64,000 nucleotides of DNA. It comes from Escherichia coli. Lineage in GTDB: Bacteria; Pseudomonadota; Gammaproteobacteria; Enterobacterales; Enterobacteriaceae. Position numbers and translations under genes: made by a program. Below are positions 34,995 to 38,049 of the stretch, in pieces. The stretch lies in assembly GCF_029227855.1 (NCBI RefSeq), contig NZ_CP074356.1, one strand, 5' to 3'. The notes under the pieces are model-generated. The model was not told the origin of the DNA. It saw only the letters and a program-made list of their open reading frames with translations, and did not search any database. Within the stretch, counting starts at the first letter, position 1, and each line of letters opens with the position of its first letter.

Positions 34995-36287
34995 TTACCT
35001 GTTTTCCCATAATTTCAGCATCGCTTTGTGCTCTTCCTTAAGCACAATCCGCGAGCGTCTGGCTCGAATATAACTAATCGCTTCATCAACGGTTTTACAA
35101 TGTCCGTAACATAACAGCCATGCCCCCACTACCAGCGCACTGCGCGATAATCCCAACGCGCAATGGACCAGAACGCTGCCTTGCTCTTCGCGTAATGTTT
35201 CCAACATCGCCACGGCCTGTCGGAGCTCCCCCTCTTCCGGAACCACCAGATCCAACATCGGTACACAAAAATAGAGTCGATCTTTTGTCGCTCGTCCGCG
35301 AGGGAATTCAAAGGTGACGTCCAGAACCGCATTCTGTGCCGGAATATGTCGTGGAAACGCCCCTAAATAAACACCAGCAGTAATTTTGCTCACCGGCTCC
35401 AGGCGAAGGCAAACCAACGCATAGACAGCCACATCCCGATGCGCCATGGCAATGTCAGCCAGTAAACGGCGGGCGGGAGTTTCCCTTGACTATCTTTACC
35501 TGTTGTTATCGCGCCAAGCCCACCGTACCCACGGCCAATAATGAGTAGCGATAATACTGGCCAACATAACCAGACTGACCACCATAACTGAAGCATTATC
35601 ATTAGCTCCATCAACACGAGCACGCGCCTGCGACATATGGCAGTGCTATTTTGATTCGACGTTGATCAGGTTTCTGATAATTCCAACGACGGTCTACGGG
35701 CACCATCCAGTCAATTAACATACCTACCGCCAGCCCTGTGATGACATCAATAAAATGATGCTGCCAGGTCGTCAGCGTCGAAATGGCGATGAGTAAAAAC
35801 CATCCGCCGCAGACTTTACGCCACCTCACAGCCAGATGCTGACGAAAGTGACGCCAAAGTAGCCAGCAGAGAATAATATGCAGCGAAGGAGACTGGTTAT
35901 AAGGCAGATCAAACAATTCAAGTTGCGAAAATAACCATCCTGTCACCCCACTCACTTCAGGACGGATAAAACTAAACTTCAGCGGGTAGAGAAAAAACCG
36001 CAGCAGGCCATTACCGTTGCCAGAATAAGCCGGTGGACCAGACGGCGCTGCTCAAATGTCGAGCTACAAACGAACAGCGAAAATCCATATAAAAGATCCA
36101 GACTCCAGTAAGGAACAATAGTCCAGGGAAGAAAAGGGATCGCCGTTTCCCAACCGAATACCTGACTGGGGATATCATGGTTGTTAAGATCCTGAGTCGC
36201 GGTGAATTGATTAAGAAATCCATATGTGAAGAAGAAAAACGGGGCCAGCAACAATAACCAGCCAGCTCCTTGTAGTAATACGTTCCG
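34995..36287 (-). pseudogene. ynbD: ynbD (PAP2 plus dual-specificity phosphatase membrane protein) split into four ORF fragments in three frames; pseudogene or homopolymer sequencing errors
   Basis: ORFs 35979..36377 (frame 2), 35611..35955 (frame 0, PAP2 motifs PSLH and HHFID), 35390..35623 (frame 1) and 34995..35447 (frame 2, CX5R phosphatase motif HCALGLSRS) tile the position of the ~430-aa K-12 gene; the first junction sits at an A6 run at 35992..35997; 5' boundary approximate. Confidence 0.5.
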
Positions 36288-36291
36288 GCGT

Positions 36292-38049
36292 TCAGTTATC
36301 ACGACGCACCGCCATCGAAACCGTAAAAATGCCCCACTCATCAATCCGTTGTGTGCATTTATCGAATCCGGCATCATGCACGAGCGAATCCATCTCCCCT
36401 TGAGAACGCACGCGCATTACCCACGGTTTACCATCTTTATGACTGGTTAACACCCCGGCAATCAGCTCCAGTTGTGGGTGCCACGGCTGCCCGGTGTAGA
36501 TGAGAATGCCACCCGGTTCGATGGCATTCGCCAGACCTGCGAGTGAGTTTTTCACCGGCTCATTTTCGGGAAAAAGCTCATACAGACCAGACACAATCGC
36601 CAGCGTAGGCCGCGGAGTTAACGCGCTGAGTTCCTCCGGGTTAAACGCATCGCCCTGTTCAAAACGCGCCCGACCAGACATTCCCCGTTGGGCAATCATC
36701 TCTTGCCCTTGTGCAACATTTACCTCACTGTAATCACGTAATAAAATATCGCTTACGGCAGGCTCGTTTACCAGCGCATCCAGTACATAGCGCCCATGCC
36801 CTGCGGCAATGTCAACCACGCGGACGGCTAAACCTTTGGCGTGGAGATCGGCAACGGCTTGTTTAATCAGCATGTGTAAATGGGTTTTGCGCTGGCGAAT
36901 ACCGCGCCAGCCAACACTGTTCAGGTAGATTTTGTCGATAAAGCGACCGAATGCATTACTGCCTTGCGGTTGATTTTGATAGACATAATCCAGCGAACTG
37001 CCTGAATCAAAGCCGGTGCTCATTCCGAGATGCAGGCCCGCAGAGTGCGCCCCGAACAGTTTCATCGCCTTTCGCATAAAGCGATACGCCAAATCAACCG
37101 GCGATAACGGCACGGGTCCACCAGAAAGGAGCCGCCATCGATCCGCTGATGGTCCTGTGCGGTCTTCATGCTGATAATCAAATTTTTGCGACTTGTTAGC
37201 ATATAAACGGCTGATAAAGCTTTGCATTTTTTCAAATGCCTGCGCCCTGTTCTCTTCACCCAACGTGTCGTGATAAAAGCCTGGCAGCAGATGCAGCTCT
37301 TTCAGAGGACTACGTAAACGCTGATAAAAATCAATCTGCGGTTGGCGATGCACCACATAGTCATCGCCTGATATCAGAAGTTGCGTGGGGAGCGTAATCG
37401 CCGCCGCATCGCTAACAATACGTTCAGACGTTTTATAGAGATCGAGCAAGATATTGACGGCAATCGCCCGTGTGATCAGCGGATCATTATTGAAACTCGC
37501 CACCCGTTGCCGATCGTGGGTCAGATAACTCCCTTTCACATAGGAATTAATAAAAAACAGACCACGCAGACGATGCCATAACGCCAGCCCAGGACGTGCC
37601 AGCGGCACATACAATTTAACCTTAAAGGCCGGAGATGCCAGCACCAGTCCGCGAATAGCAGGCGCATAATCATGAACCCATGTGGCAACCAGCACTGCGC
37701 CGACGCTTTGCGCGATCACAACCACCTCTTCCAGTCCAACCTGGCTGTCGCTGGCAGCAAAACGGACAAATTCATCGACATCCTGCACTGAACGCGCAAG
37801 AGATGGGCTATAACCACGCGGCCCTGACGTTTTTCCATGCCCTCGGGCATCCCAGGCATAAAAAGCAGTATCTGGCATCGCCAGTTCATCAACGAGATGT
37901 TGTAGACGCCCGGAATGTTCATGACCGCGATGAAATAAGACTATGACCTTTTTCGCCCCTGGCTGTAAAGTGGGCCAGTGCCGATAAAACAACGCTGTAT
38001 TATCACTGGTGGTAAAAAAATGTTCCCCAGGGATGCGTGAATTTTCCAT
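36292..38049 (-). CDS. ynbC: YnbC, alpha/beta hydrolase fused to a class I SAM-dependent methyltransferase domain (585 aa)
   Basis: N-terminal hydrolase region and C-terminal methyltransferase-like region ([16 protein letters not shown]) in the translation. Confidence 0.85.

Follow-up and report, generated by a model that had tools for sequence, protein, structure and literature searches.

Three small deletions in Escherichia coli ynbD point to a genuine pseudogene that was very probably hit recently and repeatedly

YnbD has been described as the fourth putative membrane PAP2 of Escherichia coli; it failed to complement mutants lacking C55-PP or PGP phosphatase, bacteria with a ynbD deletion are viable, as is a quadruple PAP2-less strain, and the protein was left without an ascribed function (PMC7413402). 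Another gene of the same operon, ynbB, is a non-essential cdsA paralogue that was linked to the biosynthesis of the glycolipid MPIase (PMC6362211). Our literature search on the pseudogenisation of ynbD found no dedicated report.

Here, we analysed the ynbD locus in a stretch of 64,000 nucleotides of E. coli DNA (assembly GCF_029227855.1, contig NZ_CP074356.1), called the window below. The gene order, hrpA and azoR on the plus strand followed by ynbD-ynbC-ynbB-ynbA on the minus strand, is the same as in K-12, with ynbD as the terminal gene of the ynbABCD operon and convergent with azoR. The comparison of annotations gave K-12 lengths for ynbA, ynbB and ynbC, and ynbD itself could be aligned end to end with the alleles of K-12 and 042 between its usual neighbours ynbC and azoR. 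Nevertheless, ynbD is the only one of the 63 annotated CDS in the window that is flagged as a pseudogene, which bears out the statement of a preceding sequence-only reading that the other genes are intact, and RefSeq gives the label 'frameshifted' to ynbD in the near-identical record NZ_AP045174.1 as well. The features of the locus are as follows.

34995..36302, minus strand: ynbD pseudogene in the PGAP bounds, from GTG 36300..36302 to the stop TAA 34995..34997
36292..39566, minus strand: ynbC, ynbB and ynbA, the operon genes upstream of ynbD, all annotated as intact
35686..36059, minus strand: remnant of the PAP2 lipid-phosphatase domain (PF01569/PF14378 on K-12 YnbD, mapped by alignment)
35001..35372, minus strand: remnant of the dual-specificity phosphatase (DSPc) domain (Pfam PF00782, E=2.6e-27, from the translation)
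35992..35997, minus strand: lesion 1, T6 on the coding strand, GGTTTTTT-CTC; K-12 nt 288, codon 96, inside PAP2
Junction 35614/35615 (35614..35617), minus strand: lesion 2, deletion of the 7 bp CATTGTG; K-12 nt 663-669, codons 221-223
35411..35413, minus strand: lesion 3, T4 shortened to T3; K-12 nt 874, codon 292, just upstream of the DSPc domain

The PAP2 remnant corresponds to K-12 aa 74-198 and is broken by lesion 1, although the motifs PSLH and HHFID are still coded. The DSPc remnant (K-12 aa 306-429) kept an intact reading frame with the motif HCALGLSRS and lies within a 150-aa ORF at 34995..35447. Hence, both the N-terminal membrane PAP2 part and the C-terminal DSPc part are recognisable, but the ORF that should join them is in four pieces. 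When 34850..36450 was scanned for promoters and terminators, nothing exceeded the shuffled expectation.

The four pieces had been noticed before as ORFs in frames 2, 0, 1 and 2 and were found again on the minus strand at 35979..36377, 35611..35955, 35390..35623 and 34995..35447. However, the first ORF had been taken as the beginning of ynbD, which is an over-extension: it runs 86 nt into ynbC and places the gene start too far upstream by 75 to 99 nt. We read the lesions from an alignment of the window with the intact genes of K-12 (b1411) and 042, each of 1293 nt, and with other alleles. Compared to these intact genes, ynbD of the window has deletions of 1, 7 and 1 nt, 9 nt in total, and the case in which an intact reference would be identical to the window at this place was not seen. 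As the deletions sum up to -9 nt, the first and the last piece of ynbD are in one frame, exactly as expected from three shifts in the same direction.

At the site of lesion 1, intact alleles have either T7 (042, GMF065) or T6G (K-12, CFSAN018748), so the lost base was either a T or a G. The addition of one T to the T6 run restores the intact YnbD sequence of 042, in agreement with the repair that had been made by hand; without it, the frame stops at TGA 35979..35981. Lesion 2 is of a different kind. Where CFSAN018748 has GCTCGTG[CATTGTG]TTGATGG, the window reads GCTCGTGTTGATGG, and the GTG that closes the deleted block repeats the GTG that precedes it. This pattern fits a slippage between 3-nt direct repeats, as judged from the sequence, and not a homopolymer event; TGA 35611..35613 follows directly after the deletion. 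Lesion 3 is again a shortened homopolymer, and the frame behind it ends at TGA 35390..35392. Thus, the earlier expectation of short homopolymers at the other two junctions, and of three single-base homopolymer differences in an alignment to K-12, holds for the first and third sites but fails in the middle, where 7 bp are missing.

The shifted frames run for only 0 to 9 codons past their lesions before they stop, therefore the full-length YnbD cannot be made. These frameshifts are without a polar effect, since no gene of the operon follows ynbD and azoR is convergent with it. A loss of YnbD function would follow from these early stops, the first of which lies at approximately codon 100 of 430. 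When the three indels were repaired, an ORF of 430 aa without any further stop appeared, which differs by 5 aa from 042 and at 20 of the 430 residues from K-12 and retains all catalytic motifs, namely PSLH, HHFID and HCALGLSRS. Such a clean ORF after repair indicates that the decay is recent. Furthermore, the window allele has no more than four substitutions of its own, of which three are synonymous and one falls on the annotated start codon, hence no clear substitution signature of relaxed selection is visible.

The start codon deserves a separate remark. The TTG annotated as start in K-12, 042, CFSAN018748 and 536 corresponds to 36276..36278 on the minus strand, where the alignment revealed TTA due to a window-specific G>A change at position 3 of the K-12 gene. 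For the pseudogene, PGAP chose instead the GTG at 36300..36302, which is in frame, 24 nt upstream of the TTG site and overlapping the ynbC stop. The change from TTG to TTA is a possible fourth lesion of ynbD, only if the TTG is the true start. If translation truly begins at the upstream GTG 36300..36302, it represents only a silent change of a Leu codon.

It had been left open whether the broken gene reflects a real pseudogenisation or a cluster of homopolymer miscalls. To follow each lesion separately across 5426 complete E. coli genomes, we used junction-specific megablast queries of 41 nt, which seed only on genomes with the same allele. The T3 junction was found in 21 of them, namely in 19 swine ETEC/O139:H1 strains from several projects, in GMF065 from the USA and in JNEC-KY178. 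The T6 junction occurs in 32 genomes: JNEC-KY178, A1.S1.160 from Poland and 30 genomes of a 536-like clade including strain 536, which was Sanger-sequenced; the T6 alleles of 536 (ECP_RS07210) and A1.S1.160 are labelled as frameshifted by PGAP. The junction of the 7-bp deletion was present in JNEC-KY178 only (1/5426). Moreover, the T3 lesion gives rise to a 150-aa ORF that was found in 234 index blocks of a public assembly collection, and the Logan assemblies ERR4317649 and SRR6362294 contain a T3 allele with this single frameshift. With the T3 change in 21 genomes from several laboratories, T6 in 32 genomes and the middle event being a 7-bp deletion, a real pseudogenisation is supported and a cluster of homopolymer miscalls is not.

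JNEC-KY178 (NZ_AP045174.1, assembly GCF_055661385.1), a clinical isolate from Japan, is so close to the window that the latter must stem from a sibling isolate or from a further assembly of this clone. The region is 100% identical over 1601 nt, all three lesions are common to both, and over the entire 64 kb only seven single-base differences exist, none of them in ynbD.

7245, 15825, 18864, 30065, 39215, 55071 and 55294: single-base differences between the window and NZ_AP045174.1, 39215 being located in ynbA

The RefSeq protein ids of the locus form a run, with WP_275877228 for hrpA and the endings 229 for azoR, 230 for ynbC and 232 for ydbD, while ynbA of JNEC-KY178 has the new id WP_471724187. 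This run hints that the lineage had been assembled before, probably as the source of the window, and likewise without a YnbD protein.

A more restricted artefact was considered, in which errors of assembly or base calling account for the T6 run and/or the 7-bp gap, and the common T3 frameshift alone is genuine. Lesions 1 and 2 are combined only in JNEC-KY178 and the window, and runs of T6/T7 represent a classic context of long-read errors. However, these two assemblies differ at 7 SNPs and yet agree at all three lesions, other lineages, strain 536 among them, have a real T6 allele, and a 7-bp deletion between GTG repeats does not resemble a homopolymer error. No other pseudogene was detected in the 63 CDS of the window and 47 CDS of an arbitrary 50-kb region elsewhere in the assembly. 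With no other frameshifted CDS in approximately 110 sampled over 114 kb, two errors within one already dead gene of 1.3 kb are very unlikely. We therefore regard this partial artefact as distinctly improbable, and even if it applied, T3 alone would leave ynbD a pseudogene.

The support differs between the lesions. T3 is backed by 21 genomes and many assemblies, T6 is a recurrent allele, and the 7-bp deletion is seen in two near-identical assemblies with a low rate of assembly frameshifts. Seven versions in which a gene caller might have reported the fragments specific to the window were looked up by exact match in a collection of 15 billion proteins; none of them was present, so the 7-bp deletion is without third-party confirmation. 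An ENA metagenome contig matching the 114-aa middle fragment was tried as proof of this deletion and rejected after alignment; it carries the 536-like T6 allele, and the contig of 688 nt merely stops at the deletion position. In summary, we regard T3 as certainly real, T6 as very probably real and the 7-bp deletion, with its two near-identical assemblies, as probably real. For the gene as a whole, we are highly confident that ynbD of the window is a genuine pseudogene, hit recently and repeatedly. It is an ordinary multi-hit pseudogene, already flagged as 'frameshifted' in RefSeq.

The intact DSP part raises the question whether a functional product could still be made, either by joining the pieces through ribosomal frameshifting or by translation of the 150-aa ORF 34995..35447 as a stand-alone cytoplasmic phosphatase. 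The DSP domain with its HCx5R motif is indeed intact in one ORF with an ATG, gene callers report this 150-aa ORF in many assemblies, and the net deletion of 9 nt restores the original frame. But, most genomes possess ynbD as a single uninterrupted gene of 1293 nt, hence the shifts are not conserved recoding sites; all 57 full-length matches in our spread sample had exactly this length, and K-12 and 042 read through in a single frame, so programmed ribosomal frameshifting was rejected. The middle shift would require that 7 nt are put back, and stops follow each lesion almost at once. A stand-alone DSP protein is improbable, as the 15 nt that precede ATG 35445..35447 contain no purine-rich Shine-Dalgarno sequence and the first 12 residues of the ORF are out-of-frame sequence. 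Taken together, a split or recoded functional gene appears very improbable.

Another possibility is that the T-run at codon 96 acts as a contingency switch turning ynbD on and off, since at least three backgrounds, represented by the window, A1.S1.160 and the 536-like clade, show the one-base contraction. However, the run comprises merely 6-7 nt, a G breaks it up (T6G) in 2999 genomes according to the junction query, and all 30 genomes of the 536-like clade have T6, which argues for an inherited state and not for switching. Moreover, a reversion at codon 96 could not restore ynbD of the window, in which two lesions would remain. With so short a tract, and with the window and JNEC-KY178 being the same at this site, a phase-variable locus was rejected, and its probability is close to negligible. 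A real pseudogene thus stays our preferred reading.

The sequence-only reading had missed that one of the lesions is inherited and common to other lineages. The T3 lesion lies in a stretch that is almost identical to that of the swine ETEC strain CFSAN018748.

33759..36516, approximately 2.7 kb, no strand assigned: near-identical tract (ynbC 3' end, ynbD, azoR, hrpA 5' end) from pairwise differences to CFSAN018748

Within this tract only 8 substitutions separate the two genomes (about 0.3%, i.e. approximately 99.7% identity), whereas outside of it the divergence from CFSAN018748 amounts to 2.1% in the rest of ynbC, 3.5% in ynbB and 3.4% in hrpA. Among the 5426 complete genomes, no non-self match exceeded 98.5% to the ynbABC flank or 97.9% to hrpA, so the host lineage of the window is unusually divergent. 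We also observed that the 5' part of ynbA at 39401..39500 (codons ~22-55) has 28 differences per 100 nt to CFSAN018748, far above the rest of the operon. The low divergence in the tract compared to 2-3.4% in the flanks points to recombination. Hence, the simplest reading of these identities is that a recombination tract of approximately 2.7 kb moved the already broken T3 allele between lineages; as an alternative, repeated contractions from T4 to T3 are conceivable in principle.

Other parts of the region show structural differences as well. IS1 truncates ynbA/ynbB in 042, and IS200C splits ynbC in BEC1-S17-ESBL-09. The window contains two copies of the IS200C transposase, at 17688..18146 and 43232..43690; the latter lies between pdxI and paaY, where K-12 has the ydbA autotransporter pseudogene, which is absent from the window. 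At the gapC position, 26486..27487, an intact type I glyceraldehyde-3-phosphate dehydrogenase is annotated, whereas K-12 has a pseudogene (b4493).

The further fate of the T3 allele can be compared with GMF065, in which ynbD has the T3 lesion, is additionally interrupted by nonsense at W7* and W281*, and differs by several non-synonymous changes. Its ynbD thus reads as a more decayed copy of the same T3 pseudogene allele, and the two nonsense codons, which are its own, indicate that it decayed further by itself once the common first hit had occurred. The pattern in GMF065 and the window would fit one initial inactivation, after which each copy decayed neutrally and independently. For the T-run at codon 96, the T6 alleles of the 536-like strains and A1.S1.160 are on different haplotypes, which makes this run a recurrent slippage site.

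On this basis, the following history can be proposed, with the order of events taken only from the sharing patterns and the mutational mechanisms deduced from the lesions. The T3 lesion is probably the oldest and the primary inactivating hit; this one-base contraction of the T4 run at codon 292 would have split the membrane PAP2 half from the C-terminal DSP domain. The T3 allele may then have reached or left the lineage by homologous recombination, on the tract that is common to the O139:H1 clade. After the selection on ynbD was gone, further losses may have accumulated in the lineage: one base of the T7/T6G site at codon 96 presumably by replication slippage, the 7 bp at codons 221-223 presumably by microhomology slippage between the two GTG repeats, and the annotated TTG start, which may have turned into TTA also after the loss of selection.

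Alternatively, the loss of ynbD might have been repeatedly selected in host-associated pathogenic lineages (the UPEC 536-like clade, edema-disease/ETEC O139:H1 and the clinical lineage of the window), with the broken allele being spread by recombination. We rate this as improbable; if true, ynbD would act in some lipid or glycolipid pathway, the product of which is unknown, and would there be a pathoadaptive or 'antivirulence' target.

Under our preferred reading of a recently and repeatedly hit pseudogene, natural isolates can do without YnbD, frameshifts recur in the T-run at codon 96, and a dead allele can move on a short recombination tract. In addition, approximately 660 of the 5426 complete E. 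coli genomes (~12%) have no match to ynbD at all. Beyond annotation hygiene these findings are of little importance, the recombination tract and the recurrent T-run being minor population-genetic details. For the scanning of genomes, the case nevertheless serves as a worked example. Several frame changes in the same direction that sum up to zero look suspicious, but here they represent an ordinary stepwise decay of a pseudogene.

Compared to the known systems, ynbD of the window resembles K-12 ynbD (b1411, phosphatase domain-containing protein YnbD) and its counterpart in 042 (WP_024165605.1) in position, full-length alignment and PAP2 plus DSPc architecture. In contrast to them, it is shorter by 1 + 7 + 1 nt and reads TTA where TTG is annotated as the start, hence the protein of 430 aa cannot be encoded. 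The allele of swine ETEC/O139:H1 (CFSAN018748, C7A99_RS16295) has the same contraction from T4 to T3 at codon 292 on the near-identical tract; however, this is its only lesion and the PAP2 half is uninterrupted (called as a 290-aa ORF), whereas the window has two more deletions. The allele of 536 and its relatives (ECP_RS07210) has the T6 at codon 96 and is also annotated as frameshifted, but it belongs to a different haplotype with several SNPs and is without T3 and without the 7-bp deletion, therefore its T6 is of independent origin. Finally, the genes with programmed frameshifts in E. coli, i.e. prfB, dnaX and IS1 insAB', likewise have their coding sequence spread over more than one frame. 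Unlike in these genes, the shift sites of ynbD are not conserved in the orthologues, there are three shifts of which one comprises 7 nt, and the usual form of ynbD is a single-frame gene.
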